A DNA stretch of 64,000 nucleotides from Bacteroidales bacterium. Its GTDB lineage: Bacteria; Bacteroidota; Bacteroidia; Bacteroidales; UBA3663. A program made the translations under genes and the position numbers. The notes under the pieces were generated by a model. The model was not told the origin of the DNA. It saw only the letters and a list, made by a program, of their open reading frames with translations, and made no database searches. Of this stretch, positions 27,169-44,154 are shown piece by piece. The stretch is from NCBI GenBank assembly GCA_017548545.1, contig JAFYZW010000010.1, positions 13,168 through 77,167 on the forward strand, given 5' to 3'. Numbering within the stretch: the first letter of the stretch is position 1; each line of letters starts with the position of its first letter.

Positions 27169-28797
27169 ATGAAAAAACCATTATATTTGGCAGTAGCCAT
27201 TTTGGGAATCCTTGCCTTTGGCAGTCTCACTTCTTGCCAGGATGAGGATTTTGGTGTGAGCACAGCTGTGCTGAAAGAGAAAGCATTTGAACAGGGCTTC
27301 ATCAAGGAGTTCGGCAAACCTTCAGCCGACCAGAGTTGGGATTTCTATGCCCAGCAGATGGAGGCTATCCGTCGGGGGGCTGGCAAGACACGTGCGACGA
27401 TGGCAGATCCTGACGAAGTAACTGTATCAAACGCCTCTCAACCGACGGACAAAGATTATTTTAATTCTATTGTCAGCGATGTTAAAATGGTCTTGGAGGA
27501 CGAAATCAACAATTCTCATGTCGGACAGAATCATTACGAGCTAACTTCTACTGGTACATTCAATGTTTACGCGATACTATATGCAGGCGATTATGAGAAG
27601 TATTCTAAGTTCAATTTGGATTTCGGCATCGCATATATGAATGGTAATACAGAAGTTAGGAAAAAACTTTTTGGATATAAGTCTGGTAGCGGTGAAATCA
27701 ACCCTGGCTATGCAAAACAAGTTTATATTACACCTGGAGCTTCGTTTTATTTTTATATGAGTATTACTCCAAGTGGAAGTGCTTGGAATCCAACTTATTA
27801 TAGGTTCTATTCGAATTCATCAACCTATAAATATGGAACCAATGTTAATTACTTAAATAACAATGGAACCCTAATAGGTAAAGATGGAAATACTTATGAT
27901 GGTGCTTCAACATTGGTTTATTCTATGGAAGTTAATGACGAAGCCGAAGGTGATAAGCAAATCATGATTATTGGTTTTGAAGACGGGTGGGCAGGTACAG
28001 CTGACCTTGACTTTAACGACTTGGTCATAATGATCGAAGGAGATCTTCCTGTTCCTGCCGCCAAGCGCTTCTTCTGTGAAGACAAGGAGTCATTGGATTG
28101 GGACTACAACGATGTGGTGTTCGACGTGATGAACTCAGGTATCGTGCTTCGTGCAGTGGGCGGTACACTTCCAGTATGGTTGCTTGTGAAGAATAGAGAA
28201 TCAAATGAATACAAAGATATCGGAGGCGAGCTTCATGAACTGATGAGAAGCAAACAATTCCAAACAAGTCACCAAAATGCTCAGTTGACCTATCGACGCA
28301 AAGATGAAAATGGGGAAGAGAAGACCTTTTACCGCCCCATTGACGTAGGTGTTGAACATGGGCTTTGGCTTGATCCTGTCCAGGTTGTTCGATGGACGAC
28401 AAGTATGCAAGCAGGTCAACCAGACACGCGATTGAGGGAAGGCGAGGTGGAACGTTTTGCCAATCCCTTTGTGAATAATCCCGTAGGTGGACTTAAATTG
28501 GTCGTGGGCAGTGAGTATGGACAGACTTTAGCCGATGCTATTGAACGTGCTACGGTGGATATGGATAGTAAGGAAACTATCATTGAGATTGATGGCTTTG
28601 GAAGCATACCTGCCATCTGGTCTGGTCCTGTGTCTGTCAGATGGATGAAGGAGTTGGAAAAGATCACTAAGGGTTACCCTGACTTCTATGGAGGAGGCAC
28701 TCCTGCAGAGAGTGGCAGCCAACCACAATGGTGGGTGAGCAATATAAATACAAGTTACATGTATGACTTCTGGGGTGATGGTGGAGATACGCTCTAA
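27169..28797 (+). CDS. LruC-domain-like surface lipoprotein, paralog 3
   Basis: 542 aa. LAFGSLTSCQDEDFGVS, FEDGWAGTADLDFNDLVIMIEG, LDWDYNDVVFDV, and C-terminal IPAIWSGPVSVRWMKELEKITKGYPDFYGGG. Confidence 0.55.
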   Translation: MKKPLYLAVAILGILAFGSLTSCQDEDFGVSTAVLKEKAFEQGFIKEFGKPSADQSWDFYAQQMEAIRRGAGKTRATMADPDEVTVSNASQPTDKDYFNSIVSDVKMVLEDEINNSHVGQNHYELTSTGTFNVYAILYAGDYEKYSKFNLDFGIAYMNGNTEVRKKLFGYKSGSGEINPGYAKQVYITPGASFYFYMSITPSGSAWNPTYYRFYSNSSTYKYGTNVNYLNNNGTLIGKDGNTYDGASTLVYSMEVNDEAEGDKQIMIIGFEDGWAGTADLDFNDLVIMIEGDLPVPAAKRFFCEDKESLDWDYNDVVFDVMNSGIVLRAVGGTLPVWLLVKNRESNEYKDIGGELHELMRSKQFQTSHQNAQLTYRRKDENGEEKTFYRPIDVGVEHGLWLDPVQVVRWTTSMQAGQPDTRLREGEVERFANPFVNNPVGGLKLVVGSEYGQTLADAIERATVDMDSKETIIEIDGFGSIPAIWSGPVSVRWMKELEKITKGYPDFYGGGTPAESGSQPQWWVSNINTSYMYDFWGDGGDTL

Positions 28798-28984: not shown

Positions 28985-31900
28985 CTATTTGTTCACACGC
29001 TCCATGATCCACTGCTGGTTGATAGCGTTGTGTCGTCCGTAAAGTTGTATGCCGCGGTTCTCTTCATATTTCGCCCCTTCGACATCAATGGCTCGGCCTT
29101 CGTCTTTCGTGAGTAGCAGCAAGTAGTTGCCGTTGTCCATCTTCACGGCCTTCCAGCGTTCGAGATCCGAGCCCGAGTATTCGCTGAGCCATAGGAAGCC
29201 GCGCAGCTGGTCGTTGATGCTGATGACGTACTTTTCATCCAACATGCTGCGCAGGACGTAGGAGCCATCCTTCTCGCGCGACAATCTCCACTTCTGAGCA
29301 TCGGATTTCTTGTTTTTCTGAATTACCATCCTCAGGTGGTTTGACGCCTTGCCATTCACTGTAATCACATAGTCTGGGTCGCCTGCAGTCTTGATGATAT
29401 AGATGTTCCCTTCGTTCTGGGTGGTCGAAGAGGGTTTAGTGGTGGTTGAAGACGTGTTTGAAGTGTTGGATGTTGTGGAGCCGTCTGCACGTTCCATGAT
29501 CCACTGTTGGTTAGTGCCATTGTGCCGTGGGTAAAGCTGTAAGGTAGCGTTATCCTCCCATACTGCCCCTTCTATATCCAGTGCCTGGCTCTGTTTTTTC
29601 GAGTGTATCAGCACGTAGTTGCCGTTGTCCATCTTCACGGCTTTCCAACGTTCGAGATCCGAGCCTTTGGATTCGTTTAGCATCACAAATCCGCTCAGTT
29701 GATCGTTGCCACAGATGACGTAGTTTTCGTCCAACAGGCTGCGCAGGATGTAGGTGCCGTCCTTCTGGCGTGACAATCTCCATTTCTGAGCATTCGACTT
29801 CTGATTCTTCTGGATTACCATACGCTTTTGCTTTGCCACCTTGCCATCAGTCACTGTGACCACGTAGTTCGGGTCGCCCGCACTCTTTATATAATAGACA
29901 TTCCCTTCGTACTGGGTGGACGAAGATGTATTTGTGTTACCGCTGTTGTTGTTCGAAGGCTTTGTTGTGGTTGTCGTGGTAGTTGTACCGCTGTTGTTGT
30001 TTGAAGGCTTCGTGGTGTTTGTCGTGTTTGTGCTACCACTATTGTTGTTCGAAGGCTTCGAAGTAGTTGTTGTGGTAGTGCTACCACTGTTGTTGTTTGA
30101 AGGCTTGGTCGTGGAAGTCCCATCCACACGTTCCATGATCCATTGCTGGTTGAGGTCGTTGTGGCGTCCGTATAGCTGGACGCCCTGGTTCTCCGCATAT
30201 TTTGCTGCTTCGATGTCTAGGGCGCGGTTCTGGTCTTTCGAACACAACAGCATGTAGTTCCCGTTAGGCATCTTCACGGCCTTCCAGCGTTCGAGCTCCG
30301 AGCCTTTGAATTCGCTGAGCCATGCAAATCCGCGCAACTGGTCGTTGATGCTGATGACGAAGTTTTCGTCCGACATGCTACGTAGGGCATATGTGTCGTC
30401 CTTCTCGTGTGTCAATCTCCACTTCTGTGCATCCGTTTTCTTGTTTTTCTGGATAACAATCCTCTGATGGTTGGACGCCTTGCCGTTTACCGCAAGTACG
30501 TAGTTCGGGTCGCCTGCACTCTTGATATAATAGACATTACCTTCGTGTGGGGTGGACGAAGAGGTGTTTGTAGAACCACTATTGTTGTTTGAAGGCTTCG
30601 TTGTGGTTGTGGTTGTCGTAGTAGTTGTACCGCTGTTGTTGTTCGAAGGATTCGTAGACGATGTTGTGGATGTCTGCGTTGCGGAATTGTCACCGGGCTT
30701 ATCTTTTTCACAGCTACGGATCTTGAAACTTCCTTCCGACTTGCCGTAATTGCGGCTCTGTATCCCATGGGATAGTTGTGCCTCGTGCTTCTCGCTTGGA
30801 CCTTTGATTCTCACCAGGAGCGTTCCTGTCTCTCCAGGCTCCAAACGAGTGGCGTGTACAACGGCTGTTGCCAGGTCAGATTTGTCCATGTAGCCATACC
30901 CAGAGTTCTTGCCATAGACGGTTCCTGTGGTGCGGCCTGTGACGCGCACTTTTACCATTTCACCTCTCTTGTCGCGGTACTTTGAAATGTCGGGGTCGGT
31001 GACTTCGGTAACAGGAACTCCGATTACCTTGAATGCACCTTTCGCCTTCTTGTAGCTTTGGCTCTTAATGCCATTTCGAGTGATAGAGGGATAGCTGCCC
31101 TGGTCGGCTACGATTTCTATTACCACCTTGTCCACATTCCCTTCCACTTGGGCAGCAGCATGGAGGCTGGCAGTGGCAAGGTCGGAATCGATGGTGTAGA
31201 TGTAGTTCTTGCCACCCCAGATCTTGCCGTCTTTCCTCGCTTTCACCCAGAAAGTGAACCGTTGTCCGATTTTGTCGCGATATGGCGTAAGGTCGTCCGG
31301 CGCATCGATGACAGTCGATGAGGGCGTAGATGTAGTGGTAGTCGTTGGCGATGTGTTATTGTTGTTTGAGGATGTATTATTATTAGATGTGTTATTATTG
31401 TTAGAAGATGTATTGGTGTTGTTTGAGGATGTGTTGGTGTTATTAGAATTAGTGTCGTTTAAAGGGTTGGATGTGGAAGTCCCATCCACACGTTCCATGA
31501 TCCACTGCTGGTTGAGGTCGTTGTGGCGTCCGTATAGCTGGACGCCCTGGTTCTCCGCATATTTTGCTGCTTCGATGTCCAGGGCGCGGTTCTGGTCTTT
31601 CGAACACAACAGCTGGTAGTTTCCGTTAGGCATCTTCACGGCCTTCCAGCGTTCGAGCTCCGAGCCTTTGAATTCGCTGAGCCACGCAAATCCTCGTAGC
31701 TGGTCGTTGATGCTGATGACGAATTTTTCATCCGACATGTTATGCAGGGCATATGTGTCGTCCTTCTCGTGTGTCAATCTCCACTTCTGTGCATCAGTTT
31801 TCTGATTCTTCTGGATCACTATCCTCTGATGGTTGGACGCCTTGCCGTTTACCGCAAGTACGTAGTTCGGGTCGCCTGCACTCTTGATATAATAGACATT

Positions 31901-32524
31901 ACCCGCAGACTGGTCGGACGAGGAGGTGTTTGTGGATCCGCTATTGTTGTTCGAAGGATTCGTAGTGTTTGTGGGTGACGTGGAATTCGTGTCAGATCCT
32001 GATGTAGTGCTGCTCTTGACCTTTTCGAATGTCCACTGTTGATGATTGCATTTGTGCGTGCTCCATAGTTCTACGATTCCATTGTTCTTGGCATTATTGG
32101 TGCCATCCTTCAGTTCGAGGCAGAAATTCTTGTTGTCGCACGCCATCAGGACATATGAGCCATTGTTCTGCCGTTCGGGTACCCATTTCTGGCGATTTAT
32201 CCCCGTGTATGACGAAGTTACAATCAGGGCATTATTGGCTATCTGATTGTTTTTCGAATTGATGACAAGCTTGTTGTTGGCAACACTTCGCAGGATGATA
32301 GCACCACCGCTGAGGTTCTCCACTTCCCACATCTGGGAGGTCTTGTTCTGCCACTCATAGGCTACAATCTGATTGCCATCGGAAGCCTTGTCCCCTTTCA
32401 GCGTCAGTGCGTAGGAGGGGCTTTCGGTGTACTTGATGACATAGACACCATTGGGGATTACTTGAGCCATTGCGGCCAGTACGAAGAAGATAAGTGCGAT
32501 GACTGCAGTGATTCGTTTTTTCAT
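28985..32524 (-). CDS. secreted multi-domain lectin: 5 ricin-type beta-trefoil (CBM13-like) domains plus 2 central LCCL-like domains, joined by Ser/Thr/Asn-rich linkers
   Basis: 1179 aa. Signal peptide MKKRITAVIALIFFVLAAMAQ. (Q/E)xW triads recur in each ~140-aa unit (QMW/QKW/QQW, QKWRL/ERWKAV/QQWIMERV). The two central ~100-aa units, YRDKxG...G(K/T)(I/V)(W/Y)G...Y..(D)SDLATA..HA...(E)..G....V.I......Y.......GI(K/Q)S..Y.K..G(A/S)FK(V/I), match the LCCL pattern but lack its cysteines. Linkers carry KPSNNNSG repeats. Confidence 0.7.
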   Translation of the reverse strand: MKKRITAVIALIFFVLAAMAQVIPNGVYVIKYTESPSYALTLKGDKASDGNQIVAYEWQNKTSQMWEVENLSGGAIILRSVANNKLVINSKNNQIANNALIVTSSYTGINRQKWVPERQNNGSYVLMACDNKNFCLELKDGTNNAKNNGIVELWSTHKCNHQQWTFEKVKSSTTSGSDTNSTSPTNTTNPSNNNSGSTNTSSSDQSAGNVYYIKSAGDPNYVLAVNGKASNHQRIVIQKNQKTDAQKWRLTHEKDDTYALHNMSDEKFVISINDQLRGFAWLSEFKGSELERWKAVKMPNGNYQLLCSKDQNRALDIEAAKYAENQGVQLYGRHNDLNQQWIMERVDGTSTSNPLNDTNSNNTNTSSNNTNTSSNNNNTSNNNTSSNNNNTSPTTTTTSTPSSTVIDAPDDLTPYRDKIGQRFTFWVKARKDGKIWGGKNYIYTIDSDLATASLHAAAQVEGNVDKVVIEIVADQGSYPSITRNGIKSQSYKKAKGAFKVIGVPVTEVTDPDISKYRDKRGEMVKVRVTGRTTGTVYGKNSGYGYMDKSDLATAVVHATRLEPGETGTLLVRIKGPSEKHEAQLSHGIQSRNYGKSEGSFKIRSCEKDKPGDNSATQTSTTSSTNPSNNNSGTTTTTTTTTTKPSNNNSGSTNTSSSTPHEGNVYYIKSAGDPNYVLAVNGKASNHQRIVIQKNKKTDAQKWRLTHEKDDTYALRSMSDENFVISINDQLRGFAWLSEFKGSELERWKAVKMPNGNYMLLCSKDQNRALDIEAAKYAENQGVQLYGRHNDLNQQWIMERVDGTSTTKPSNNNSGSTTTTTTSKPSNNNSGSTNTTNTTKPSNNNSGTTTTTTTTKPSNNNSGNTNTSSSTQYEGNVYYIKSAGDPNYVVTVTDGKVAKQKRMVIQKNQKSNAQKWRLSRQKDGTYILRSLLDENYVICGNDQLSGFVMLNESKGSDLERWKAVKMDNGNYVLIHSKKQSQALDIEGAVWEDNATLQLYPRHNGTNQQWIMERADGSTTSNTSNTSSTTTKPSSTTQNEGNIYIIKTAGDPDYVITVNGKASNHLRMVIQKNKKSDAQKWRLSREKDGSYVLRSMLDEKYVISINDQLRGFLWLSEYSGSDLERWKAVKMDNGNYLLLLTKDEGRAIDVEGAKYEENRGIQLYGRHNAINQQWIMERVNK
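30111..30541. repeat. 431-bp intragenic direct repeat, copy A (ricin unit 3)
   Basis: Nearly identical by eye (a few dozen substitutions at most) to 31473-31903. The offset is exactly 1362 bp (454 codons). Confidence 0.9.
31473..31903. repeat. 431-bp intragenic direct repeat, copy B (ricin unit 2)
   Basis: See copy A. Both begin gtggaagtcccatccacacgttccatgatcca and end cttgatataatagacattacc. Confidence 0.9.
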
Positions 32525-32845: not shown

Positions 32846-32853
32846 TACCTTTG
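32846..32853 (+). promoter_or_regulatory. -7 box TAccTTTG for the susC operon
   Basis: Lies 94 nt upstream of the ATG at 32947, leaving a ~85-nt leader. Confidence 0.5.
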
Positions 32854-32946: not shown

Positions 32947-35900
32947 ATGAAAAAAACAATCAAGTTATTCGGTGCGAAGCTTGTGATGATGCTTGTAATG
33001 ATGTTCACGGTGCAGGTGGCATTGGCACAAGGCAAGATCTCAGGCAGCGTCGTTGATGCGACTGGAGAACCTGTCACTGGTGCATCCATTGTCGTGGTTG
33101 GAACCCTTAATGGTACGGTTTCGGATATTGATGGCAATTTCAGCATCAATGTGAAGTCGGACGACATGCTTCAGATTTCGTACATCGGTTACGTCACTCA
33201 GACGGTCAAGCCGGTTAATGGCATGACGGTGACGCTGGCAGAAGACAACGAAATGATCGACGAGGTTGTTGTCGTAGGTTACGGTGTACAGCGCAAGAGT
33301 GACCTTACCGGTGCTGTAGCCAAGGTAGATGGCAAGACCCTCGAGGAGCGTCCGATGGCGAACATCGTGCAGGCCCTGCAGGGTGCTGTTCCCGGCCTGA
33401 ACATCTCGGTGACAGGTACCAATGCCGAAGGTTCGAGCTCGCAGACACGTATTCGTGGCGAGAAATCCATCTCGGCCGATAACAAGCCGCTCATCATCCT
33501 CGATGGTATCCCTTTCGATGGCCCTTGGTCGGAAATCAACCCCAACGATGTGGCCTCGGTGGAAGTGCTGAAGGATGCCTCGTCGGCCGCCATCTACGGT
33601 GCTCGAGGCTCGAATGGTGTTATTCTGATCACCACAAAGAAGGGTGACAAGGGCAAACTGAACGTTTCGTACTCGGCCAACTTCACAGTCAACAAAGCCG
33701 TCATCGTGCCGCGTCTGATGACTGGTCAGGAATTCTGGGATGCCAAGATTGATGCCTTGAAGGCTGCCAACGTGATTGACCCTACACCTTCGAATCCCGA
33801 GCCTTGGATGGGCAATATCACTATGACGGAGCAGCGTCTGCACGATGCCGGATTGGAGACCGACTGGCTTGACCTCGCCTTGCGTACCGCTTTCAGTCAG
33901 CACCACAACCTTTCGTTCCGTGGTGGCGTAAACAAAACGTCCTACTACGTTTCGTTCAACCTGGCCGACAATGAGGGCATCGCCGTGGGCAACAATTTCC
34001 AGCGTGTCAACCTGCGTGTGAACCTTGACCAGGAGTTCACCGACTGGCTGAAGTTCTCGACCAACACCCAACTGGGTCGTTTCGACCGCAGTGGCAGCAA
34101 CGCCTCATTCAGCCGTGCGTTCAAGATGAACCCATTGGCCGAGGCCTACAACGAGGATGGTTCGATTCGCTCTACCGCTTGGGAGGACTCGAGCGAGGCA
34201 TTCTGTGTGAATCCGCTCGATGCATTGAACAACAGGACTCGCGATATTCGCTATAAGGTCGTCACCAACAATGCCCTCGACATCAAGATCCCGTGGATCA
34301 AGGGCCTGACCTATCGCCTGAACACTGGCTTCACCTATGAGAACTCATCGTGGAAGCAGTACCAGGGACTTGACACCTATTATGGAGCCCGTGCCAACGG
34401 TATCATCAACACCGACGACTGGCATTCGGAGGAATGGATCATCGAGAACATCGTTTCGTACAATCGCGAGTTCGGCAAACATCGCCTTTTCCTCACCGGA
34501 CTCTATTCGGCTCAGAGCAAGGAGTACGAACAGAACACGATGGAGGGCAAGGACTTCCCCAATGACGTGATGTACTATTACCAGATGTCGAAGGCCAGCA
34601 CCTCGTCGGGCAGTTCTTCGTATTGGAAGGTGAACCACCTGTCGCAGATGTTCCGTATCAACTATACCTACGACAGCCGCTATCTGTTGACCCTCACGGC
34701 CCGTCGCGACGGCTATTCGGCCTTCGGTGCCGACTCGAAGTTCGGTGTGTTCCCGTCGATGGCATTGGGTTGGAACGTGATGAACGAGAAGTTCTTCAAG
34801 TCGGCCTTGGACGTGATGAATAATCTGAAGTTACGCCTTTCGTGGGGCAAGAATGGCAATGAGGCCATTTCGGCCTATTCGTCATTACCAAACCTCTCGA
34901 CCTATAATTATTTGAACGACGACCATACAGCCATGTACGGCTTCTTCCCCGAGAAACTGGCTTCGCCAACCCTTGGCTGGGAGACGACACAGCAGGTGAA
35001 CTTCGGTGTGGATTTCGCTTTCTTGAACAATCGCATTTCGGGTACGTTCGATACCTATTGGTCACATACCAAGGACCTGTTGCTCAATCGTTCCATTCCC
35101 ACCATCAACGGTACGGGCAACATTACCGAGAATCGTGGCAAGACCAAGGGCTCGGGCTGGGAGTTGCAGATCAACAGTACTAACATCGTGAAGAAGAACT
35201 TCACTTGGACCACTACACTCAATCTGGCTCATTACAATACGGAGATTGTCGATGTCGGCATTTACGACGAGAACGGAAACCCTGTGGATGACGTGGCTTC
35301 ACGCTGGTTCATCGGTGAGCCCATCAGCGTTAACTACGACTATAAGAAGATCGGCATCTGGCAGATTGCCGATGCTTCGAATCCCAAGGGCCAGCAGGAC
35401 CCCAACTACCGCTATTCGATTCCGGGATACGTGAAGGTGGAAGACAAGGATGGCCAGAATGACATCACCCCCGATGACATGCAGCTCATCGGATCGGCAG
35501 TGCCTTGGCTGATTGCTTCGCTATCGAACAGCCTTTCGTACAAAGGACTTACACTTACCGTCTTCCTCAACTCGGAGTTTGGACGCTCGGCCAACAATAC
35601 GCTGATGACCGTCTATTCGAACTCGTATCGCCAGAACCGCCTCTACCATGACTTCTGGACACCCGAGAATCCTACAAACGACTATCCGATGAATAGTCTT
35701 GACGCAGGTCCCAACCCTTACGATGCAGGATTCTATGAGGATGCCTGGTTCGTGAGACTGCAGAACGTCAACTTGAGCTACAACCTTCCTTCTACTTGGC
35801 TTAAGAAGATTAAGCTCAGCCGTGTACAGGTTTATGTCGATGGCAAAAACCTGAAGGTATGGACACCATGGAAGGGTCTTGATCCTGAATATACCTCCAA

Positions 35901-35958
35901 CCAGCAAAGCACGCCGCCTCAGCGGTCGATCAGCTTTGGCTTGAAAATCGATCTTTAA
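32947..35958 (+). CDS. susC: SusC/RagA family TonB-linked outer membrane protein
   Basis: 1003 aa. CarbopepD_reg N-terminus (GKISGSVVDATGEPVTGASIVV), the SusC plug (VVVGYGVQRKSDLTGAV, ILITTKKG), and C-terminal PQRSISFGLKIDL. Confidence 0.92.
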   Translation: MKKTIKLFGAKLVMMLVMMFTVQVALAQGKISGSVVDATGEPVTGASIVVVGTLNGTVSDIDGNFSINVKSDDMLQISYIGYVTQTVKPVNGMTVTLAEDNEMIDEVVVVGYGVQRKSDLTGAVAKVDGKTLEERPMANIVQALQGAVPGLNISVTGTNAEGSSSQTRIRGEKSISADNKPLIILDGIPFDGPWSEINPNDVASVEVLKDASSAAIYGARGSNGVILITTKKGDKGKLNVSYSANFTVNKAVIVPRLMTGQEFWDAKIDALKAANVIDPTPSNPEPWMGNITMTEQRLHDAGLETDWLDLALRTAFSQHHNLSFRGGVNKTSYYVSFNLADNEGIAVGNNFQRVNLRVNLDQEFTDWLKFSTNTQLGRFDRSGSNASFSRAFKMNPLAEAYNEDGSIRSTAWEDSSEAFCVNPLDALNNRTRDIRYKVVTNNALDIKIPWIKGLTYRLNTGFTYENSSWKQYQGLDTYYGARANGIINTDDWHSEEWIIENIVSYNREFGKHRLFLTGLYSAQSKEYEQNTMEGKDFPNDVMYYYQMSKASTSSGSSSYWKVNHLSQMFRINYTYDSRYLLTLTARRDGYSAFGADSKFGVFPSMALGWNVMNEKFFKSALDVMNNLKLRLSWGKNGNEAISAYSSLPNLSTYNYLNDDHTAMYGFFPEKLASPTLGWETTQQVNFGVDFAFLNNRISGTFDTYWSHTKDLLLNRSIPTINGTGNITENRGKTKGSGWELQINSTNIVKKNFTWTTTLNLAHYNTEIVDVGIYDENGNPVDDVASRWFIGEPISVNYDYKKIGIWQIADASNPKGQQDPNYRYSIPGYVKVEDKDGQNDITPDDMQLIGSAVPWLIASLSNSLSYKGLTLTVFLNSEFGRSANNTLMTVYSNSYRQNRLYHDFWTPENPTNDYPMNSLDAGPNPYDAGFYEDAWFVRLQNVNLSYNLPSTWLKKIKLSRVQVYVDGKNLKVWTPWKGLDPEYTSNQQSTPPQRSISFGLKIDL

Positions 35959-35991
35959 TCATCAATGGTCTTCAAATAAAAAACTAAAGAT

Positions 35992-37782
35992 ATGAAAAGC
36001 AAGAAAACTATCATAGCATGTCTGTTCCTCGCCCTTGGTCTGGCAGGATGCAACGAAGACTCCTTCCTCGAAGAGCAGCCCCATTCGTCGCTTTATCCCG
36101 AGAACCTTTTGGTGGATTACAACGGCTTCCAGTCGATGATCACGCCTCTGTATGGCATGATGCGTGCCGAATATCGTCGTGCCGATGCCTTGGGCGGTGG
36201 CATCCCGCTGGTGCTCCACAGCGCTTGGGGAGGCGGCGTCGATAACTCGTGGGCCAACAACAGCCACTCGGAGCTGAAGTTCATGTACTATCCTTCGGCC
36301 ATCAAGCAGGTCGATCTGCAGATCTTCTCCAACGTTTTCCGTTGGTGCTACCGCATCATCAACACCGCGAACATGATCATCGCCCGTGCCGAAAACGAGG
36401 AAATAAACTGGGGAGTGGGTGCACAAGCAGAAAAGAACAAGAATGAAATCCTCTCGGAAGCACGCTTTGCCAGAGCGTGGGCCTATCGTCACTTGACCTA
36501 CTCGTTTGGTGCCGTACCCCTTTCGCTCGACGAGATCACGGGTTCGAACTATCGCACTGACTGGGAGCGTACTCCCGTGAGCGAGATTCGTAAGGCGATG
36601 GAGGAGGATCTGCTCTTTGCAGCCAACAACCTGCCTCTGCGTCGCAGCAACAATAGCGAGATATCGGGAGCCATGGCACGTCACTATCTGGGAGAGCTCT
36701 ATTTGGCCGAAGGTCAGCCACAGAAGGCCGTCGATATCTTGAAACCACTGGTTGAAGGCAGCGAGTATGCCTTGATGACCGAACGTTTTGGCAAGAATGC
36801 CTCCAATCCAGGTTGCGCTTTCATCGACGTGTTCCGTACCCCGATGTATGTCGATGGCAATAAAGAGGTTCTCTTCGCTTTCGTCAATACCGAACCAGAA
36901 AACTCTGCGTACGGCACAGCTGAGGTTTATATCAAGAGCACCTACAAGGATTACTATTCGAATGATGGCACAATAAAGAAGAGCAACTTGAACGACCCCG
37001 ACTATACTTCGGGAGCGTGCACCTGGCCACAGGCATTCTGGCTCAACAATGGCGGCAAGGGTGCCGGACGTATTGTTCCCTCGCGTGGTTCGCTGCGACT
37101 CTACGATTACAAGGGCATGGGCACCATCGACGACCGTATCTCAGACTATGCGATGGTATGGACTATCAATGACCGCGCTGCCGACGGTACCATCACCAGC
37201 TTCCTGAATAATGGACAGGCCGTAATTGATACCACCGTGACCTCAAAGATGACTGACGAGGGCACCACTTCGATCAAGAAGTACAACTGGCCCACCACAC
37301 GTAAATGGGACTATACGGCTCCCGTAAAAGCTAATGGCGATAAGGACGGCTGCTATCAGGACATAGTCTATCTGCGTTTGGCCGATACCTATCTGCTTTA
37401 TGCCGAGGCTTTGATGAAGATCAGCAAGAACAGTGAGGCTATTAAGTGGATCAACAAGGTACGCAACCGCTCGCATGCCGTCAGCATTGATGAGAACGAT
37501 CTGGCCGTAGGTGGCATGGATTTCATTCTCGACGAGAGAAGCCGCGAACTGCTGTCGGAAGAGGAGCGTCGCCACACATTGATCCGTGTGTGCCAGGAGA
37601 ATGGAGGTGATGAGCGTGACGTGAACAACTACTTCAAGCGTCGTATGCGAGAACTCAACGAGATCGCTGGTCGTCCGGCTCGTGGCATGAATGACTACGA
37701 TACTCCTGTGCTGTTCCCAATTCCTCAGAACTTCATTGAATCGAACTCTGGCCGTGCGCTGGAGAATAATCCAGGGTATTGA
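35992..37782 (+). CDS. susD: SusD/RagB family nutrient-binding outer membrane lipoprotein
   Basis: 596 aa. Lipobox LAGCNEDSFLEE, TPR-like helices (EARFARAWAYRHL, RLADTYLLYAEAL) and the C-terminal ERSRELLSEEERRHTLIR motif. Confidence 0.9.
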   Translation: MKSKKTIIACLFLALGLAGCNEDSFLEEQPHSSLYPENLLVDYNGFQSMITPLYGMMRAEYRRADALGGGIPLVLHSAWGGGVDNSWANNSHSELKFMYYPSAIKQVDLQIFSNVFRWCYRIINTANMIIARAENEEINWGVGAQAEKNKNEILSEARFARAWAYRHLTYSFGAVPLSLDEITGSNYRTDWERTPVSEIRKAMEEDLLFAANNLPLRRSNNSEISGAMARHYLGELYLAEGQPQKAVDILKPLVEGSEYALMTERFGKNASNPGCAFIDVFRTPMYVDGNKEVLFAFVNTEPENSAYGTAEVYIKSTYKDYYSNDGTIKKSNLNDPDYTSGACTWPQAFWLNNGGKGAGRIVPSRGSLRLYDYKGMGTIDDRISDYAMVWTINDRAADGTITSFLNNGQAVIDTTVTSKMTDEGTTSIKKYNWPTTRKWDYTAPVKANGDKDGCYQDIVYLRLADTYLLYAEALMKISKNSEAIKWINKVRNRSHAVSIDENDLAVGGMDFILDERSRELLSEEERRHTLIRVCQENGGDERDVNNYFKRRMRELNEIAGRPARGMNDYDTPVLFPIPQNFIESNSGRALENNPGY

Positions 37783-37820
37783 ATAAGTTTGGTTAATAAT
37801 AATTGTGTGTGTAAAGTGGT

Positions 37821-39185
37821 ATGGAACTTTCTGCATTCATCGTGGCAATCGTCATCATTGGCGTGACGGGCTATTTCCTCTACAAGAAGACGAATCCTCA
37901 GGGGCTGTTGTTGCTCTCGGGCCTGCTGATGCTGGCCTTAGGTATTGCGTTCGGCATCAATCCTTCGAAGCCGGATAATCCTACGGGGAGCACCTTCTTC
38001 GACGTTATTCGATTGGTGGAGGAGACCTTCACGAAAAACTTCGCCCGTGCAGGACTGATGATCATGACCATTGGTGGCTATGTGGCCTTCATGAATGCTA
38101 TCAAGGCCACCGATGCTCTGGTTTATCTGTCGATGAAGCCCTTGCGATGGTTCAGGAAGTTCCCATACTTGAGTGCTATCGTCACCATCCCTATCGGACA
38201 GTTGCTGTTCATCACTACACCGTCTGCCTCTGGGCTCGGCCTGTTGCTGGTAGCCTCATTCTTCCCTGTCCTGATCAATCTTGGTGTAAGCCGTCTGACG
38301 GCCTTATCGGTCATTGCTGCTGCCACCATCTTTGATCAGGGGCCGGGTTCCGCCAACACTGCCCTGGCAGCACAACTCATCGGACAGACCAATGACGAAT
38401 ACTTCATCACACACCAGTTGCCTTTGGTCTTGCCTACCACTTTGGTCGTCATGGTTTTGTACTATTTCAGTAACCGCTATTTCGACCGCAAGGATAAAAG
38501 CGTGGAGGAGAAGCTGCCGGAGGTCACTCGTCCCGAAGTACCTTTGTTTTACGCCATACTACCTGTACTACCCTTGGCCACGCTGGTCATTTTCTCACCC
38601 TTTGTCGGGCTTATCGGCACGCATATCAAAATAAACACGACGATAGCTATGATCTTCTCGTTGTTCGTTTCATTGGCTGCAGTGGCCTTCTGCAATCGTG
38701 ATTTCAACAAGACGTTTGCCTTGTTTGGCACATTTTGGAAGGGTATGGGCAACGTGTTTGCTTCGGTCGTCACACTAATTGTCGCTGCCGAGGTTTTCTC
38801 CAAGGGCTTGATCAGTTTGGGTTTCATCGATTCGTTGGTCAACTACTCCTCGAACGCCGGCCTAACGGGTATCGGCATCTCAGTGATTTTTGCCATTGTG
38901 GTCTTCGGCGCCGCTGTGTTGATGGGTAGCGGCAATGCGGCCTTCTTCTCATTCGGTCCACTTCTCCCTTTGGTGGCCACACGCATCGGTCTGCCGGCGT
39001 TTGCTCTGGTGCTGCCGCTGCAACTTTCGGCCAGCATGGGACGTGCCGTATCGCCTATCTCGGGCATTATCGTGGCCATCGCAGGTGTGGGCGGTGTGTC
39101 GCCCATGGATTTGGCTAAGCGGAATGTCATTCCACTCACCGGCGGCTTCCTCTTCCTCCTGGCCTATCATTTTATCACTCTATAA
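37821..39185 (+). CDS. DcuC/YfcC-type (C4-dicarboxylate anaerobic carrier family) inner-membrane transporter
   Basis: 454 aa polytopic protein. Size, N-terminus and hydrophobicity pattern resemble DcuC (PF03606-type). The call rests on overall resemblance, not on a diagnostic motif. Confidence 0.55.
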   Translation: MELSAFIVAIVIIGVTGYFLYKKTNPQGLLLLSGLLMLALGIAFGINPSKPDNPTGSTFFDVIRLVEETFTKNFARAGLMIMTIGGYVAFMNAIKATDALVYLSMKPLRWFRKFPYLSAIVTIPIGQLLFITTPSASGLGLLLVASFFPVLINLGVSRLTALSVIAAATIFDQGPGSANTALAAQLIGQTNDEYFITHQLPLVLPTTLVVMVLYYFSNRYFDRKDKSVEEKLPEVTRPEVPLFYAILPVLPLATLVIFSPFVGLIGTHIKINTTIAMIFSLFVSLAAVAFCNRDFNKTFALFGTFWKGMGNVFASVVTLIVAAEVFSKGLISLGFIDSLVNYSSNAGLTGIGISVIFAIVVFGAAVLMGSGNAAFFSFGPLLPLVATRIGLPAFALVLPLQLSASMGRAVSPISGIIVAIAGVGGVSPMDLAKRNVIPLTGGFLFLLAYHFITL

Positions 39186-39195
39186 TACGTTCAAG

Positions 39196-40341
39196 ATGTT
39201 CACTCTAATTAAGAACTCCGACATTTATGCACCCCAGCATCTCGGCTTAAATGATATCCTGGTCTGCAACGAGCAGATTGTTCATATCGGTAAGGATATA
39301 GAGTTGCCTGACAGCTTTGATGTTCGTGTGATCGATGCCGAAGGCCTCAAGACCGTACCTGGCTTCATTGACCAGCATGTTCATGTGATTGGCGGTGGCG
39401 GACAATTGGGCTTTGCTTCGCTTGTCCCTGCTGTCACTATCAGCGAGTTGGTGCAGGTGGGCACGACTACAGTGCTTGGGTTGCTTGGCACCGATGGTTT
39501 TGTGAAGGACCTCAACACCCTCTATGCTTCCGTGAAAGCCATCTGCCAAGAGGGGTTGTCGGCTTTTATGCTCACAAGCTATTATGGCCTGCCGGAACGC
39601 ACACTTACAGGTAGCGTGGCTGAAGACCTTATCTATATCGACAAGGTGATAGGTTGTAAGCTTGCCATGAGCGATGACCGCAGCAGCTTCCCGACCACAC
39701 TCGAAATACTTCGCCTGATCAACCAGGTGCGCCTAGGAGGTTTCACCTCAGGTAAGGGCGGTGTGCTGCACATTCATCTTGGCGCCGAAGAGACGGGTAT
39801 CAGTCAACTGATTGACATTGTCAAAGAACATCCCAAGTTCGCCGACTACCTATCGCCAACCCACCTTATCCGTACACGTCCGCTTTTCGAACAAGCATTG
39901 GAATTTGCCAACCTCGGCGGTATGGTTGACTTCTCGACAGGTGGCACCAAGTTCACCCAGCCACGTCACTGCGTGATGGAGGCTCTTAACCGTGGCATAT
40001 CTATCGATCGGATTACGTTTTCGAGCGATGGGCATGGTGGTGTCAGAAAAGAGAATCCCGAAACCGGAGAAGTCATATATCGTCCGGCACCACTCGATCT
40101 GAACTACAAGGAGATGACTCTGCTCGTTAAAGATTGCGGTCTGGCGCTTGATGATGCACTCAAACTCATCACCACTAACCCTGCCCGCAACTTGAAGCTT
40201 AGGAACAAGGGGCGTATTGCCGTAAACATGGATGCCGACATCTGTTTTCTCGACGACCAATTGGGCCTGCAGCATGTCATGGCCAGGGGTCGGATGGCCA
40301 TGGAGGGACAGAAAATACTCATGAAAGGGAGATACGAATGA
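39196..40341 (+). CDS. iadA: beta-aspartyl (isoaspartyl) dipeptidase
   Basis: The true start MFTLIKNSDIYAP lies inside track ORF 38935..40341. The PGFIDQHVHVIGGGG metal-binding motif and the amidohydrolase fold pattern match IadA. 381 aa, no signal peptide. Confidence 0.8.
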   Translation: MFTLIKNSDIYAPQHLGLNDILVCNEQIVHIGKDIELPDSFDVRVIDAEGLKTVPGFIDQHVHVIGGGGQLGFASLVPAVTISELVQVGTTTVLGLLGTDGFVKDLNTLYASVKAICQEGLSAFMLTSYYGLPERTLTGSVAEDLIYIDKVIGCKLAMSDDRSSFPTTLEILRLINQVRLGGFTSGKGGVLHIHLGAEETGISQLIDIVKEHPKFADYLSPTHLIRTRPLFEQALEFANLGGMVDFSTGGTKFTQPRHCVMEALNRGISIDRITFSSDGHGGVRKENPETGEVIYRPAPLDLNYKEMTLLVKDCGLALDDALKLITTNPARNLKLRNKGRIAVNMDADICFLDDQLGLQHVMARGRMAMEGQKILMKGRYE

Positions 40342-42467
40342 AAACGTTTAAGCTGATAATGTGTCTTGTCCTGTTGATGATGCCGTGGTTGGCAAGCGCT
40401 CATATCGATGGTCCGGGGGAAGGCGTGTTCACATATGCTGGGTATGAGCCGTATACCGACAGACCAGTTGATGTGCATTACTTTATCCCATCTGACGGCA
40501 ATGTCGCGACGATGCCCATCCTGTTTGTGATGCATGGAGCTGATCGTGGTTGGAGGTATCTGATGAAAACGTGGCGACAAGATGCACAGAAGTACCGTTT
40601 TATCGTGCTGATTCCCGTCTTCACCAAGGAGCTCTATCCCGTGGAGGATTATCAGGAAATGGGTGTATATGCGGACGATGGCTCGCTAAACGCCCAGGAG
40701 CGGACGGCTGCTTTCTTGATCGACAAGATGTTTGAATGGTTCCGTGATGAAATAGGGGGCCAACAGCAACACTATTCCTTCTACGGACATTCGGCTGGCG
40801 GACAGTTCGTGCACCGTGCCTTGTTGCTCAACGACAGCCCCTATGTCGAACGTGCGGTAGTGGGAAGCCCTGGTTGGTACACCTTCCCCGACAATCGCGA
40901 AGCGCGCTATCCGTATGGCGTGAGCGATATTCCTTATATTAATGAGAATGATTTGCGACGTTTCTTGGCACAGGAAGCATGGGTACAGGTGAGCGATGGT
41001 GACACATTACGCGAGACGTTCCTCCGCAAGACACCCGAGGCAGAACTGCAGGGATGTAACCGAGAAGAGCGCGGCAAGGCGTTCTATGCAAGTCTCTGGA
41101 AGGCGGCCGAAGAGCTTGGTGTGGAGAGTGGCTGGTCATTTGTGGACGAGCACGATGTGGCGCATCATTCTTCGGGCATGGGCAAACGTGCCGTCAAGTA
41201 TCTTTTCCCAGAACAGATGCGTCGTGTGGATTGTACGTCGGTGATGACACCGCAGGAAGTCACCGGTCGTTTGCAGAGACTCGTGGAGGGTCACAAGGAT
41301 GTAGCCCGCATGGATGTGCTGGGTCAGACACCTCTTGGACAAGACATCCCTGTCTTGTACATAGGTGATCACAACGACGGCAAACTCCGAGTTTGGATAG
41401 AGGCTGCACTGCATGGCAATGAGCCGGCGGGTGTGCTTACTGTCTGCCAAATGGTGGATTTTTTGCTTAACAGCATCGAAGGGCAGGAGGTATGCAGCCG
41501 TCTCAGCTTTATGATTCTCCCTATGGCCAATGTGGATGGATATGCGAATCACGACCGACTTTCGGGCACTGGCAATGACCTCAATCGGGACCAAGCGACG
41601 TTCTCCGATACCGTGACGTGGATCCTCAAGCGGGCGTATGCCTCTTGGCAGCCTGAATTGGCCATCGACATACACGAATATCGTCCGATGCGGAAGGATT
41701 TCGCCCTTATGTGCAACATGCCTGATGCACGAATTGCCATCGGCAAGGACATTTTGCTACTGCCATCGGGACATCCCAATGTCGATCCGGCCATTCGTGC
41801 ACTCAACGATACACTACAGCGTCAGATACGTCGTGACTTGGATGCAGTTTCTTATACTCATGGCTTTTACTTTACTGCCACGGGAAATGAACAGGACGGG
41901 TATTTCATTCGCAAGGATGGAGGTAATCCGCGTTCGAGCACTACGTTCCAGGCATTGACCAATGCCGTGTCGCTCTTCTTCGAGATCAAAGGTATCGGAC
42001 TCGATGACGATCTGTTGCCTCGACGTGCTGATGTCGGTCTGGTGGCTTTACGTTCGGCTATCTGCAAAGCTGCATCCATCGCCCCTTTCATCAAGGAACA
42101 AGTGTCGCTGGCCGATCTTCGTGCTTGCGAAGCCAACCGACCACTAATTGCTCAGTCTCATCCCAAAGAGATACAGACTGAGGTGACATTTGAGAATCTC
42201 GAGACTGGTCGGTTTTTCAAGCAACGTGTGACGGCACGCGATGCCATGCAACAGGTAGTCGATGTTGAGAAAGCTCGTCCGGCATATTATCTGCTACCCC
42301 ACGATGCACTGTGTGCAAAGGAACGACTGCAGGCCATGGGTGTCATTGTCGAAGGTGACCGCGTGCCAGTAGGCCAACCGTTGGGCAACCTTGTTGTAAC
42401 GCTACTCGAACCCGAATCGCAGCATTTCGCCTTTCAAGGGTTGGAGATAAAGGCTGTGGAGAAATGA
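40338..42467 (+). CDS. secreted fusion protein: N-terminal alpha/beta-hydrolase (PHB-depolymerase/esterase-like) plus C-terminal M14 zinc carboxypeptidase
   Basis: 709 aa. Signal peptide MKTFKLIMCLVLLMMPWLASA. N-terminal domain: PILFVMHGADRG ... FYGHSAGGQFVHR (GxSxG nucleophile elbow). C-terminal domain: EAALHGNEPAG (HxxE), PMANVDGY, DLNRD, AIDIHEY (second Zn His). ATGA start/stop overlap with iadA. Confidence 0.7.
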   Translation: MKTFKLIMCLVLLMMPWLASAHIDGPGEGVFTYAGYEPYTDRPVDVHYFIPSDGNVATMPILFVMHGADRGWRYLMKTWRQDAQKYRFIVLIPVFTKELYPVEDYQEMGVYADDGSLNAQERTAAFLIDKMFEWFRDEIGGQQQHYSFYGHSAGGQFVHRALLLNDSPYVERAVVGSPGWYTFPDNREARYPYGVSDIPYINENDLRRFLAQEAWVQVSDGDTLRETFLRKTPEAELQGCNREERGKAFYASLWKAAEELGVESGWSFVDEHDVAHHSSGMGKRAVKYLFPEQMRRVDCTSVMTPQEVTGRLQRLVEGHKDVARMDVLGQTPLGQDIPVLYIGDHNDGKLRVWIEAALHGNEPAGVLTVCQMVDFLLNSIEGQEVCSRLSFMILPMANVDGYANHDRLSGTGNDLNRDQATFSDTVTWILKRAYASWQPELAIDIHEYRPMRKDFALMCNMPDARIAIGKDILLLPSGHPNVDPAIRALNDTLQRQIRRDLDAVSYTHGFYFTATGNEQDGYFIRKDGGNPRSSTTFQALTNAVSLFFEIKGIGLDDDLLPRRADVGLVALRSAICKAASIAPFIKEQVSLADLRACEANRPLIAQSHPKEIQTEVTFENLETGRFFKQRVTARDAMQQVVDVEKARPAYYLLPHDALCAKERLQAMGVIVEGDRVPVGQPLGNLVVTLLEPESQHFAFQGLEIKAVEK

Positions 42468-42552
42468 GGCAACAGATTTTTTTTGCCAAACAAAATACTA
42501 AACGAGTGTTTTTGACGTTACATTATATGAACAGTTAAAACACATTGCCGTT

Positions 42553-44154
42553 ATGCGCAGTTTTATTACATTACTGTTGTGCCTATTGACAGCGCCTACA
42601 GTATTTGCAAACTATAACATCGATTCGCTGTTTATGGTCCTTGACCGGACCATAGACAGTTCGGTGGTTTTTATCAAACAGCGTGAAGACAACATCATGC
42701 ACTTGAAGGAGAAGCTTGCTGACAACCGAGATCCTAAAGTCCATGTTGACTTGCTTGACAGTCTCTTCCACCAGTACATCTCGTATCAGTCTGATTCGGC
42801 CATGGTATATCTGCATCAGTGCATTGAGGCATCGGAGAAATTGGATGGTATGGTGCATAATGCAGAGTATTATCGCGTGCGTTTGGCGCAGCAGTACTTA
42901 CAGTCGGGCAACTACCACGATGCCGAGGCGCTGCTCAACTCGATTGATGTCAGGAAACTCCACGAGTCGGAGAAGAACTATTTCTTCCGCACAAGAAGCA
43001 ATGTGAGCTTCGAGATTGCTAATCAGACAAAAATCGAAAACGTCAGACAGCAGGAACTTGAGATATGGCGTGCCTTCAAGGACTCCATTCTTGCATGCAA
43101 GAACTATGAGAGCGACATCTATTTGCAGTCGTTAGAGGAACGGCTGCGGGATGAGAAGAAGTATGATGAATCGTTGCATATCAATGACCTTCGTCTTCAG
43201 AAGTACTCAAAGCCACTGCGACGATTTGCCATTGTCGCCTCCTGTCGTTATCAAACGCACAAACAGAAGAATTCACCGCGAGAGGAACAACTCTACTGGC
43301 TCACCGAATCGGCCATCAGCGACGTGCGTAATGCCATCATGAACCAGTCCTCGCTGTGGGAATTGGCCGACATTCTCAGCCGGGAGGGGGATCTTGATCG
43401 CTCGTGCAAGTATATCAGTTTTTCATGGGACTGTGCCACAGAGTTTCATAGCCATGCCAGGACGAAACAGATTTCGCCTATACTGAATACCATTAATGTC
43501 AAATATCGCGAGGAGTTGCAACGCTTTACGCGTAGCCTTACGGTCGGGATGTGGATCCTTGCTTTGATTTCGATCCTTTTGCTCGTTTCGTTGTATTATG
43601 TCGTCAAGGAGCATCGTCGACTGAAGCAAGCCAAACAACTTATTGACAAGAAAAACGAAGACCTATCGGCCGCGGTGAATGCACTTGACGAGTCCAACCA
43701 CAAGAAAGAGCGATACATAGGCTATTTCTTGGAACTTTGTTCAGTCTATATTGACAAACTGGAGAGTTTCCGAATCAATGTTTTGCGTAAGGCTCAGCAT
43801 GGACAACTGGTAGAGTATCTTTCGAACCAAAAAATCATGGCGCTGAAGGAGGCCGACCAAGAGAGTCTCATCAGGTGTTTCGACGATGCTTTCCTCGAAT
43901 TGTTCCCGACGTTTGTCGAACAGTTTAATGCTATGCTTCGTCCCGATGCACGCATTATACCTCCCAATGGACAATCGCTCACCTCCGAGCTGCGTGTCTT
44001 CGCCTTGATACGATTGGGTATTGATGATAGTGCCAAGATTGCCGAGTTCCTCAACTACAGCATCCGCACCATCTACAACTATCGCACAAAGATCAACAAG
44101 CTGCTTGTCATTCCCAAAGAGGAATTTGAGAAGCGACTGATGGAGATCGTATAA
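42553..44154 (+). CDS. DUF6377 domain transcriptional regulator (periplasmic TPR-like sensor, one TM, C-terminal HTH)
   Basis: 533 aa. Signal/TM at the N-terminus, a TM segment near residue 335 (VGMWILALISILLLVSLYYVV), and the C-terminal LTSELRVFALIRLGIDDSAKIAEFLNYSIRTIYNYRTKI motif characteristic of DUF6377 proteins found next to SusC/D pairs. Confidence 0.7.
   Translation: MRSFITLLLCLLTAPTVFANYNIDSLFMVLDRTIDSSVVFIKQREDNIMHLKEKLADNRDPKVHVDLLDSLFHQYISYQSDSAMVYLHQCIEASEKLDGMVHNAEYYRVRLAQQYLQSGNYHDAEALLNSIDVRKLHESEKNYFFRTRSNVSFEIANQTKIENVRQQELEIWRAFKDSILACKNYESDIYLQSLEERLRDEKKYDESLHINDLRLQKYSKPLRRFAIVASCRYQTHKQKNSPREEQLYWLTESAISDVRNAIMNQSSLWELADILSREGDLDRSCKYISFSWDCATEFHSHARTKQISPILNTINVKYREELQRFTRSLTVGMWILALISILLLVSLYYVVKEHRRLKQAKQLIDKKNEDLSAAVNALDESNHKKERYIGYFLELCSVYIDKLESFRINVLRKAQHGQLVEYLSNQKIMALKEADQESLIRCFDDAFLELFPTFVEQFNAMLRPDARIIPPNGQSLTSELRVFALIRLGIDDSAKIAEFLNYSIRTIYNYRTKINKLLVIPKEEFEKRLMEIV

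Follow-up and report, generated by a model that had tools for sequence, protein, structure and literature searches.

A conserved CAZyme-free SusC/SusD cassette with a PahZ1-M14 fusion protein: a candidate uptake and degradation system for beta-linked aspartyl polyanions

Gene content and layout of the locus

We analysed a 64,000-nt stretch of DNA from Bacteroidales bacterium (UBA3663; assembly GCA_017548545.1, contig JAFYZW010000010.1, positions 13,168-77,167, forward strand), referred to below as the window, which carries a compact SusC/SusD-type gene cassette at positions 32947-44154. Domain families were scored with the Pfam and NCBIfam hidden Markov models (HMMs). The six genes are read in one direction, on the + strand; successive spacings are 33, 38 and 10 nt, the next two genes overlap by 4 nt (ATGA), and the regulator gene follows after 85 nt. 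This layout, given in a first-pass annotation of the same DNA, matched when the coordinates were re-read, and the gene families named there were all confirmed by HMM (TIGR04056, PF07980, PF03606, TIGR01975, PF00246 and DUF6377). The genes and their parts are as follows:

32947..35958, + strand: SusC/RagA-type TonB-dependent outer-membrane transporter, 1003 amino acids (aa); signal peptide, Plug and CarboxypepD_reg domains, without STN domain; TIGR04056, 871 bits
35992..37782, + strand: SusD-family surface lipoprotein, 596 aa; PF07980 and PF14322; lipobox LAGC, read by eye
37821..39185, + strand: DcuC-family inner-membrane carrier, 454 aa; PF03606, 219 bits; NF037994, 355 bits; TIGR00771, 297 bits (cut-off 187)
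39196..40341, + strand: IadA-family amidohydrolase, predicted cytoplasmic, 381 aa; TIGR01975, 359.1 bits (cut-off 331.25)
40338..42467, + strand: PahZ1/M14 fusion protein, predicted secreted, 709 aa; signal peptide, PahZ1-like domain and M14 domain (PF00246)
40338..40400, + strand: signal peptide of the fusion protein, residues 1-21, by inspection type-I-like and ending in ASA; MKTFKLIMCLVLLMMPWLASA, then H
40401..41222, + strand: PahZ1-like poly(aspartic acid) hydrolase domain, residues 22-295; from the PDB match, profile, fold and catalytic residues
41235..42137, + strand: M14 metallocarboxypeptidase domain, about residues 300-600; PF00246, 57.9 bits; Foldseek; HHalign
42138..42467, + strand: beta-rich C-terminal domain of the fusion protein, residues 601-709; AlphaFold model with predicted local distance difference test (pLDDT) values >90
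42553..44154, + strand: SusR-family regulator, 533 aa, with TPR sensor and DUF6377/SusR_C; PF19904, 254 bits; PF28559

The open reading frame of the IadA homologue extends mechanically upstream to 38935; the internal ATG at 39196 was taken as the start, supported by the family alignment and by the called gene on an identical public contig. As the first-pass annotation had it, the protein carries the motif GFIDQHVHVIGGGG and shows no signal peptide by eye, which fits the predicted cytoplasmic location. The carrier fell short of the cut-offs for NF007937 and NF007317, the equivalog models of E. coli DcuC, and is thus best described as a DcuC-family paralogue. The regulator has the architecture of SusR-family regulators, TPR_SusR followed by SusR_C (the present name of PF19904, DUF6377), and reached 431 bits against the SusR equivalog NF058541, under its cut-off of 480. 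Residues 601-709 of the fusion protein gave no family match, and for SusD no close solved homologue was found.

Sus-like systems are the main means of nutrient acquisition of gut Bacteroidota, and nearly all of them are read as glycan systems. Like these polysaccharide utilisation loci (PULs) and RagAB of Porphyromonas gingivalis, the locus has an adjacent SusC/SusD pair, here 33 nt apart, accompanied by putative periplasmic trimming enzymes, an inner-membrane carrier, a final hydrolase of probable cytoplasmic location and a dedicated sensor-regulator. Unlike the Sus glycan systems, it is free of carbohydrate-active enzymes (CAZymes): in agreement with the first-pass annotation, no glycoside hydrolase, lyase or CAZy-type esterase was found within 32947-44154 with Pfam and NCBIfam. 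Their place is taken by a predicted beta-amide hydrolase, a metallocarboxypeptidase and an amidohydrolase, and a dicarboxylate-type carrier stands at the inner membrane instead of a sugar permease of the major facilitator superfamily.

The PahZ1-M14 fusion protein and the IadA homologue

A link of the serine hydrolase to the poly(aspartate) hydrolase PahZ1 had been suggested in the first-pass annotation, and it was borne out by sequence, profile and fold. Residues 21-292 of the fusion protein match the PahZ1 structures of Pedobacter sp. KP-2 (9o7u, E 4.5e-41) and Sphingomonas sp. KT-1 (6ve6, E 1.9e-39). With a 70-sequence profile these values improved to 1.4e-71 and 2e-61, respectively, the same profile giving only 3e-37 for LpqC, a 'putative PHB depolymerase' (PHB, polyhydroxybutyrate). 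The AlphaFold model of the fusion protein (mean pLDDT 91.2) shows an alpha/beta-hydrolase of the PahZ1/LpqC type, and Foldseek superposed it on 9o7u and 6ve6 with template-modelling (TM) scores of 0.94 and 0.92 and a root-mean-square deviation of 1.8-1.9 Å. The triad Ser152 (GHSAGG), Asp222 and His276 and the specificity arginine Arg242 align with S157, D225, H280 and R246 of KT-1 PahZ1, which are essential by mutagenesis (PMC13017698), and all four are invariant in the 70 homologues (70/70). Also invariant are the basic residues R225, R230, K231 and R245, located in the same stretch as the His/Arg residues of the KT-1 and KP-2 enzymes implicated in polyanion binding. The match is strong and specific, suggesting that the 'esterase' part of the fusion is a homologue of PahZ1 poly(aspartic acid) hydrolase, beyond mere likeness of the alpha/beta-hydrolase fold.

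The characterised PahZ1 enzymes are periplasmic (PMC13017698). PahZ1 of KP-2 cleaves beta-tri(Asp), but neither beta-di(Asp) nor alpha-linked Asp; its three subsites must be filled and its acyl donor must be L-Asp, so that D-Asp-X bonds stay uncut (PMC4456602). Since beta-di(Asp) is left over, a second enzyme is needed, which provides a rationale for the rest of the cassette, including the downstream dipeptidase homologue. We propose that the locus would function in Sus-like uptake and degradation of a soluble polyanion with beta-linked aspartyl (isopeptide) bonds, with beta-oligo- or poly-aspartate as the model substrate, a reading to which we give a rough probability of 0.5. The broader claim, that the locus serves the utilisation of an acidic amino-acid polymer or peptide and not of a glycan, is quite probable.

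For the M14 domain, the model gave Foldseek TM scores of 0.5-0.7 to carboxypeptidase A (CPA), CPB, CPO, CPT and bacterial M14 enzymes, and HHalign gave 98% probability against bovine CPA, whose key residue numbers were checked. The putative zinc ligands His359, Glu362 and His446, the carboxylate clamp Asn416/Arg417 and the general base Glu549 are all invariant. HGNE at 359-362 and NR at 416-417 align with the CPA motifs (N144/R145 clamp); H446 (DIHEY) and E549 were placed by motif and spacing, the HHalign register being off around CPA His196 and Glu270. The candidate S1' residue (CPA position 255) is the invariant Ser533 or Ser534, neither acidic nor basic, in a C-terminal half where the register is unreliable. 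The domain also matched AstE_AspA_cat at 25.5 bits, barely over the cut-off of 25. A role like that of CphZ was considered for it and set aside: PDB sequence and profile searches gave no CphZ-annotated match, the best being of the CPA/CPB type, with AstE-like matches at about 1e-3.

The fusion protein resembles the PahZ1/PahZ2 pair of Sphingomonas sp. KT-1 and PahZ1 of Pedobacter sp. KP-2 in the PahZ1 fold, the Ser-Asp-His triad, the specificity arginine and the predicted periplasmic location, and the two-step logic of the pair, in which endolytic cutting by a serine hydrolase precedes the action of a zinc exopeptidase, would apply here as well. It differs in that the exopeptidase is an M14 enzyme, fused or operon-linked, with no M20/M28-type PahZ2 gene in the window, and in that PahZ1 sits within a SusC/SusD-DcuC-IadA cassette. 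Moreover, KT-1 and KP-2 are river-water isolates selected on synthetic polymer, whereas the present host, from the rumen, belongs to the anaerobic gut Bacteroidales. Term searches of two open-access papers on PahZ1 gave no mention of an operon, a gene cluster or an M14/carboxypeptidase partner.

A longer form of the fusion, of about 1010 aa, occurs in human-gut Bacteroides, in a Bacteroides intestinalis/cellulosilyticus clade (L002, L026-L035; e.g. P0074). It carries an SGNH-type insert of about 250 aa (DUF4886; IGNSYT...DHSHP) between the PahZ1 and M14 domains and has a longer C-terminal domain. The insert hints that an esterase or deacylase reaction is added here, or that the substrate is acylated.

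The IadA homologue matches the IadA structures in the PDB with E values of 2e-79 to 4e-69 and is 36-40% identical over its full length to the E. coli and Colwellia enzymes. Like these, the cassette proteins keep all metal ligands (H68, H70, K162, H201, H230 and D285) and Tyr137, in 50-51 of 51 cassette-linked sequences, as well as Arg169, Arg233 and Thr106. Unlike them, the cassette clade has Gln (or Lys) in place of Glu77 and Gly in place of Ser289, the latter in 51/51 sequences. In the window protein the Glu77 position is held by Gln70 (39403-39405), reading ggggQ vs. ggggE in 1onw, and the engineered E77Q enzyme (2aqo) scores slightly above wild-type 1onw against it. Gln was found at this position in 47 of 50 cassette-linked sequences, Lys in two (the Flavobacterium and Saprospiraceae versions) and Leu in one, and GGGGQ occurs in 118 of the 120 closest database homologues. 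Among representatives of the IadA family clustered at 50%, Glu is present in 105/134 and Gln in only 3/134. In Colwellia IadA (CpsIadA) the equivalent residue, Glu80, contacts the alpha-amino nitrogen of the substrate, and the E80Q exchange abolished hydrolysis of beta-Asp-Leu (PMC5517026).

These results indicate that the cassette IadA is unlikely to be an ordinary beta-Asp-X dipeptidase, and the cleavage of beta-Asp-X dipeptides ascribed to it in the first-pass annotation cannot be assumed. From the residue exchange we infer that it takes a substrate whose 'Asp' moiety lacks a free ammonium group; candidates would be a beta-Asp that is N-acylated by a further beta-Asp, and hydroxy or polycarboxylate analogues. 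The loss of Glu77 also weakens two candidate substrates, cyanophycin-derived beta-Asp-Arg and free isoaspartyl (isoAsp) dipeptides.

Among natural polymers, cyanophycin is the only well-known one to contain beta-aspartyl isopeptide bonds; its catabolism (cyanophycinase plus IadA, IaaA or CphZ) shares with the cassette this bond type, an IadA-family enzyme and an M14-fold zinc hydrolase. On such a substrate, the polymer or its fragments, the PahZ1/M14 protein would either strip the side-chain Arg or set beta-Asp-Arg free, leaving the last step to the IadA-like enzyme. IadA does act in cyanophycin catabolism, the isoaspartyl dipeptidase of cphA1-bearing Bacteroidota has been reported as undiscovered (PMC10206079), and the M14-like CphZ hydrolyses beta-Asp-Arg (PMC9974463). 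Yet no cyanophycinase (peptidase S51) was found with Pfam in the window locus or in four related annotated contexts, and the M14 domain has no significant CphZ-type similarity. The free alpha-amino group of beta-Asp-Arg needs Glu77, which the cyanophycin-linked Leucothrix IadA (LmIadA) retains (PMC10206079) and the cassette enzymes do not. In addition, the carriers belong to dicarboxylate-type families and genes for handling Arg are not among the conserved ones. Cyanophycin is a quite improbable substrate.

Recurrence of the cassette and its proposed function

A scan with one genome per species gave 370 PahZ1-like stretches, the best 80 of which were retrieved and the window proteins mapped onto them. 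The order SusC > SusD > DcuC > IadA > PahZ1-M14, in the same orientation as in the window, was found at 36 independent genome loci, and four further loci have this arrangement interrupted by contig ends. At eight more loci (Rikenella-like and other Bacteroidales) the fused domains are separate genes of one operon, in the order M14 > SusC > SusD > DcuC > IadA > PahZ1. An arrangement that recurs at 36 loci and, in split form, at 8 is not a chance juxtaposition. The closest relative, at 91% identity, lies in a metagenome-assembled genome (MAG) from water-buffalo omasum. Bacteroides hosts include B. intestinalis, B. cellulosilyticus DSM 14838, B. oleiciplenus YIT 12058, B. timonensis, B. stercorirosoris and B. 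muris; other hosts include rumen Bacteroidales, Prevotellaceae, Mediterranea, Parabacteroides, Muribaculum, Prevotella sp. P6B1 and MAGs of Tannerellaceae and Prolixibacteraceae. Versions are likewise found in Flavobacterium and Saprospiraceae from water and in Prolixibacteraceae from sediment. A further 27 standalone PahZ1-like loci (e.g. L044, L076) lack the cassette and informative neighbours. One contig labelled 'Clostridia bacterium' (L018) holds a complete cassette of the Bacteroidales type (SusC 63% and SusD 72% identical to the window proteins) and is probably mis-binned.

The DcuC carrier adjoins the IadA homologue in every case, and regulators differ by locus: SusR-like downstream, distant SusR-like upstream (26-29% identity), or an extracytoplasmic function (ECF) sigma/anti-sigma pair with an STN-bearing SusC. 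As regulators and flanks change while the five genes persist, these five behave as a selected unit. This bears on the idea of an ordinary glycan PUL with its CAZymes elsewhere in the genome and the peptidase-like genes as unrelated neighbours. In its favour, the regulator is of the SusR family, whose name derives from glycan utilisation; against this stands the persistence of the five genes together in 44 loci despite changing flanks and regulators, with no internal CAZyme in the annotated cassettes, and the idea is barely credible.

The distribution of the cassette bears also on peptidoglycan peptides with D-iso-Asx cross-bridges, such as those of lactobacilli, enterococci and bifidobacteria. 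By textbook knowledge murein peptide amidases fall in the M14 family. The bridge D-Asp, being N-acylated and beta-linked, could suit an IadA without Glu77, and the SGNH domain of the Bacteroides versions could strip O-acetyl groups. However, PahZ1 of KP-2 wants an L-Asp acyl donor and leaves D-Asp-X, no cassette has genes of the muramidase, amidase or NagZ type, and the cassette is present in the aquatic and sediment hosts listed above; we regard these peptides as a highly improbable substrate.

Among the cassette loci SusC orthologues are 56-69% identical, and the median identity is 73% for SusD, the best conserved component, vs. 48% for PahZ1 and 37% for M14. Conservation of SusD above that of the enzyme domains argues for a constrained ligand, which is difficult to reconcile with the scavenging of protease-resistant peptides with internal isoAsp residues from aged or heated proteins, since these are chemically heterogeneous. 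In such a scheme SusCD would import the peptides in the manner of RagAB, M14 would shorten them from the C-terminus as far as isoAsp, and PahZ1 and the IadA-like enzyme would cut isoAsp-X of the N-extended peptides. The whole cassette does consist of peptide-type enzymes, an IadA variant without Glu77 suits isoAsp with an acylated amino group, and isoAsp peptides are present in all gut habitats of the cassette. On the other hand, the PahZ1 subsites need several Asp units, the conserved basic residues indicate a polycarboxylate, and the conserved importers are of dicarboxylate types (DcuC, DASS, CitMHS) and not peptide permeases. Altogether this account appears unlikely.

Variants of the cassette outside the main arrangement share parts of it. 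The Saprospiraceae locus comprises SusC, SusD, a 295-aa protein, PahZ1, a divergent MocR-type regulator, DcuC, IadA, a protein sorted by the type IX secretion system (T9SS) and a DASS (Na_sulph_symp/CitMHS) carrier. Two carriers are added in the Rikenella-type locus, one a further DcuC-family member and the other of the CitMHS/DASS kind. A Flavobacterium locus combines DcuC, IadA and M14 with a pair of paralogous secreted proteins, a MocR regulator and a divergent PahZ1; neither it nor the Saprospiraceae version has a SusR-like regulator, a MocR-type one being found instead. In another phylum, a Negativicutes version of the module is present: Selenomonas ruminantium HD4 (L072:5063-10873; also L078, L082, L083) has LysR, a predicted cytoplasmic M20 peptidase, DcuC, a secreted 404-aa protein and PahZ1, the best PDB matches of the M20 peptidase being carboxypeptidase G2 (CPG2, E 4e-36) and PahZ2 (7ljh, E 2e-17). 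The recurring core across phyla is thus PahZ1 with a dicarboxylate-type carrier and a zinc exopeptidase, the outer-membrane part being swapped by phylum. The pathway logic outlined in the first-pass annotation (import by SusCD, periplasmic trimming, uptake by the carrier) gains backing from the conservation of the cassette, its split-gene variants and the association of PahZ1, DcuC and an exopeptidase in the other phylum.

The extra di-/tricarboxylate carriers border the split-type and Saprospiraceae cassettes (L058:1593-3011 and 12870-14210; L070:17093-18538). In the Flavobacterium MAG, whose cassette lacks SusCD, the secreted paralogues of 434 and 409 aa (L079:8530-9834 and 11379-12608; 31% identical) flank M14 and may be the outer-membrane uptake component there. 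None of the 404-, 409- and 434-aa secreted proteins of Selenomonas and Flavobacterium gave a Pfam or NCBIfam match.

Another natural polyanion isosteric with or akin to beta-polyaspartate, for instance the fungal polyester beta-poly(L-malate) or poly-gamma-glutamate, has to be weighed here. PahZ1 belongs to the lineage of PHB depolymerases, which are beta-ester hydrolases, and fusions of PahZ1-like domains to SGNH/GDSL esterase domains recur. Malate is, by textbook knowledge, a classical DcuC-type substrate, and a hydroxyl or carboxylate would be a better partner than an ammonium group for the Gln or Lys that replaces Glu77. Poly-gamma-glutamate is suggested by a verrucomicrobial PahZ1 fused to a CapA-like poly-gamma-glutamate protein (one case) and by the resemblance of the Selenomonas partner enzyme to glutamate carboxypeptidase. 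Three cassette enzymes come, however, from amide-hydrolysing families, and the MocR-type regulators of the Flavobacterium and Saprospiraceae versions would usually sense amines. Known polymalate hydrolases are reported as not being serine esterases (PMC9210645), and glutamate is not a C4-dicarboxylate. The two polymers together are distinctly unlikely.

Returning to a polyanion with beta-linked aspartyl bonds, a scheme can be drawn from the observed gene content, domain identities, conserved catalytic residues, co-occurrence of the genes and relation of fused to split forms. SusD would bind oligomers on the cell surface and SusC would import them; the operon has no gene for a depolymerase exposed at the surface, and import should therefore be limited to species of a few kDa. 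The PahZ1 domain, predicted to be periplasmic, would cut beta-Asp-Asp amide bonds endolytically into di- and trimers, and the tethered M14 domain would trim C-terminal residues as a functional analogue of PahZ2. The DcuC-type carrier, in some species together with DASS/CitMHS carriers, would then move Asp, beta-Asp-Asp and possibly trimers across the inner membrane. In the cytoplasm the IadA-family enzyme would hydrolyse the last beta-aspartyl bond, acting e.g. on N-acylated beta-Asp such as that of a beta-linked trimer. The SusR-like protein would sense a periplasmic intermediate and turn the operon on.

Several points weigh against this proposal. Identity to the characterised PahZ1 enzymes is 32-35%, so that specificity could differ, and the substrate specificity of the M14 domain is not readable from sequence. 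Replacement of Glu77, inactivating in characterised IadAs, makes the role of the IadA homologue uncertain. The fusions of PahZ1-like domains to SGNH/GDSL esterase domains would also fit an ester substrate or an acylated polymer. We know of no natural beta-linked polyaspartate, and to our knowledge PahZ1 activity has so far been demonstrated on synthetic polymer only. SusD and the fusion protein of the window are net acidic (isoelectric point about 5.3), unlike expected polyanion binders; net charge was, however, dropped as a measure of polyanion binding, as orthologues span -13 to +14 and it does not discriminate.

Neither the enzyme families nor Sus-like loci as a kind of system are new. New are the combination of these genes, the strictness with which the cassette is conserved, the occurrence of PahZ1-M14 in fused and split form, and the Gln77 IadA clade. 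The first-pass annotation knew of no such Sus-like system, and in the open-access literature searches for a PUL with IadA, cyanophycin with SusD and a Bacteroides beta-aspartyl peptidase likewise gave no description of such a locus. The proposed function would carry the Sus paradigm over to polymers of the acidic beta-peptide or isopeptide type, would indicate an overlooked N- and C-rich substrate in gut ecosystems and would give a natural context to enzymes of interest in polyaspartate recycling. Going further, it is possible, though we hold it only tentatively, that Bacteroidota of gut, rumen, termite gut and water share a Sus-like system for a natural polyanion of the beta-linked polyaspartate type, an unrecognised biopolymer. 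The PahZ1 family, known only as degraders of synthetic polymer, would then gain a physiological role, and Gln/Lys77 proteins would form a new IadA subfamily for N-substituted beta-aspartyl compounds. Since the cassette is present in cultured B. intestinalis, B. cellulosilyticus DSM 14838, B. oleiciplenus YIT 12058, Prevotella sp. P6B1 and Selenomonas ruminantium HD4, the proposal is directly testable.

Upstream region and neighbouring genes

Upstream of susC, a putative promoter element was read from the sequence:

32846..32853, + strand: putative Bacteroidota -7 promoter element TAnnTTTG, TACCTTTG, about 94 nt 5' of susC

The block ATACCTTTGCACCG is unchanged upstream of the cassette in three related loci (L007-L009), and the TAnnTTTG element may act as part of the susC promoter. 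Between 32700 and 32810, 5' of susC, repeated TTGCAA-centred elements were observed, of which GATTTGCAA and TTGCAAATC form a perfect 9-nt inverted pair, accompanied by TTGCAAT copies. They are kept in part at related loci and may constitute an operator of the SusR-like regulator.

A GNAT gene adjoining one Bacteroides cassette was considered as a component and rejected, as it is not conserved. A second family of PahZ1-like paralogues, fused to a GDSL lipase/acylhydrolase (522 aa), was seen in a sheep omasum Bacteroidales MAG (L044:10001-11569) and in similar form at L045-L057. Its neighbours are housekeeping genes (CysS, sigma-54, MiaB-like, uracil phosphoribosyltransferase), and SusCD, DcuC and IadA are not nearby.

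In the window the cassette is flanked by unrelated genes, with LolE, RbfA and an O-methyltransferase downstream. Divergent from susC lies a gene for a 1179-aa protein (28985-32524, - strand) with six ricin-B lectin repeats, an LCCL domain and a peptidase-inhibitor-I66-like region, which is not kept beside the cassette in other genomes. Further upstream, at 23229-28797 (+ strand), three tandem paralogous lipoproteins of 584, 524 and 542 aa are encoded, 41-49% identical to one another and with a DUF4114 match in two of the three. The G+C content of this array is 0.42-0.44 vs. about 0.51 elsewhere, and its products may be surface proteins that were recently acquired or are diversifying fast.

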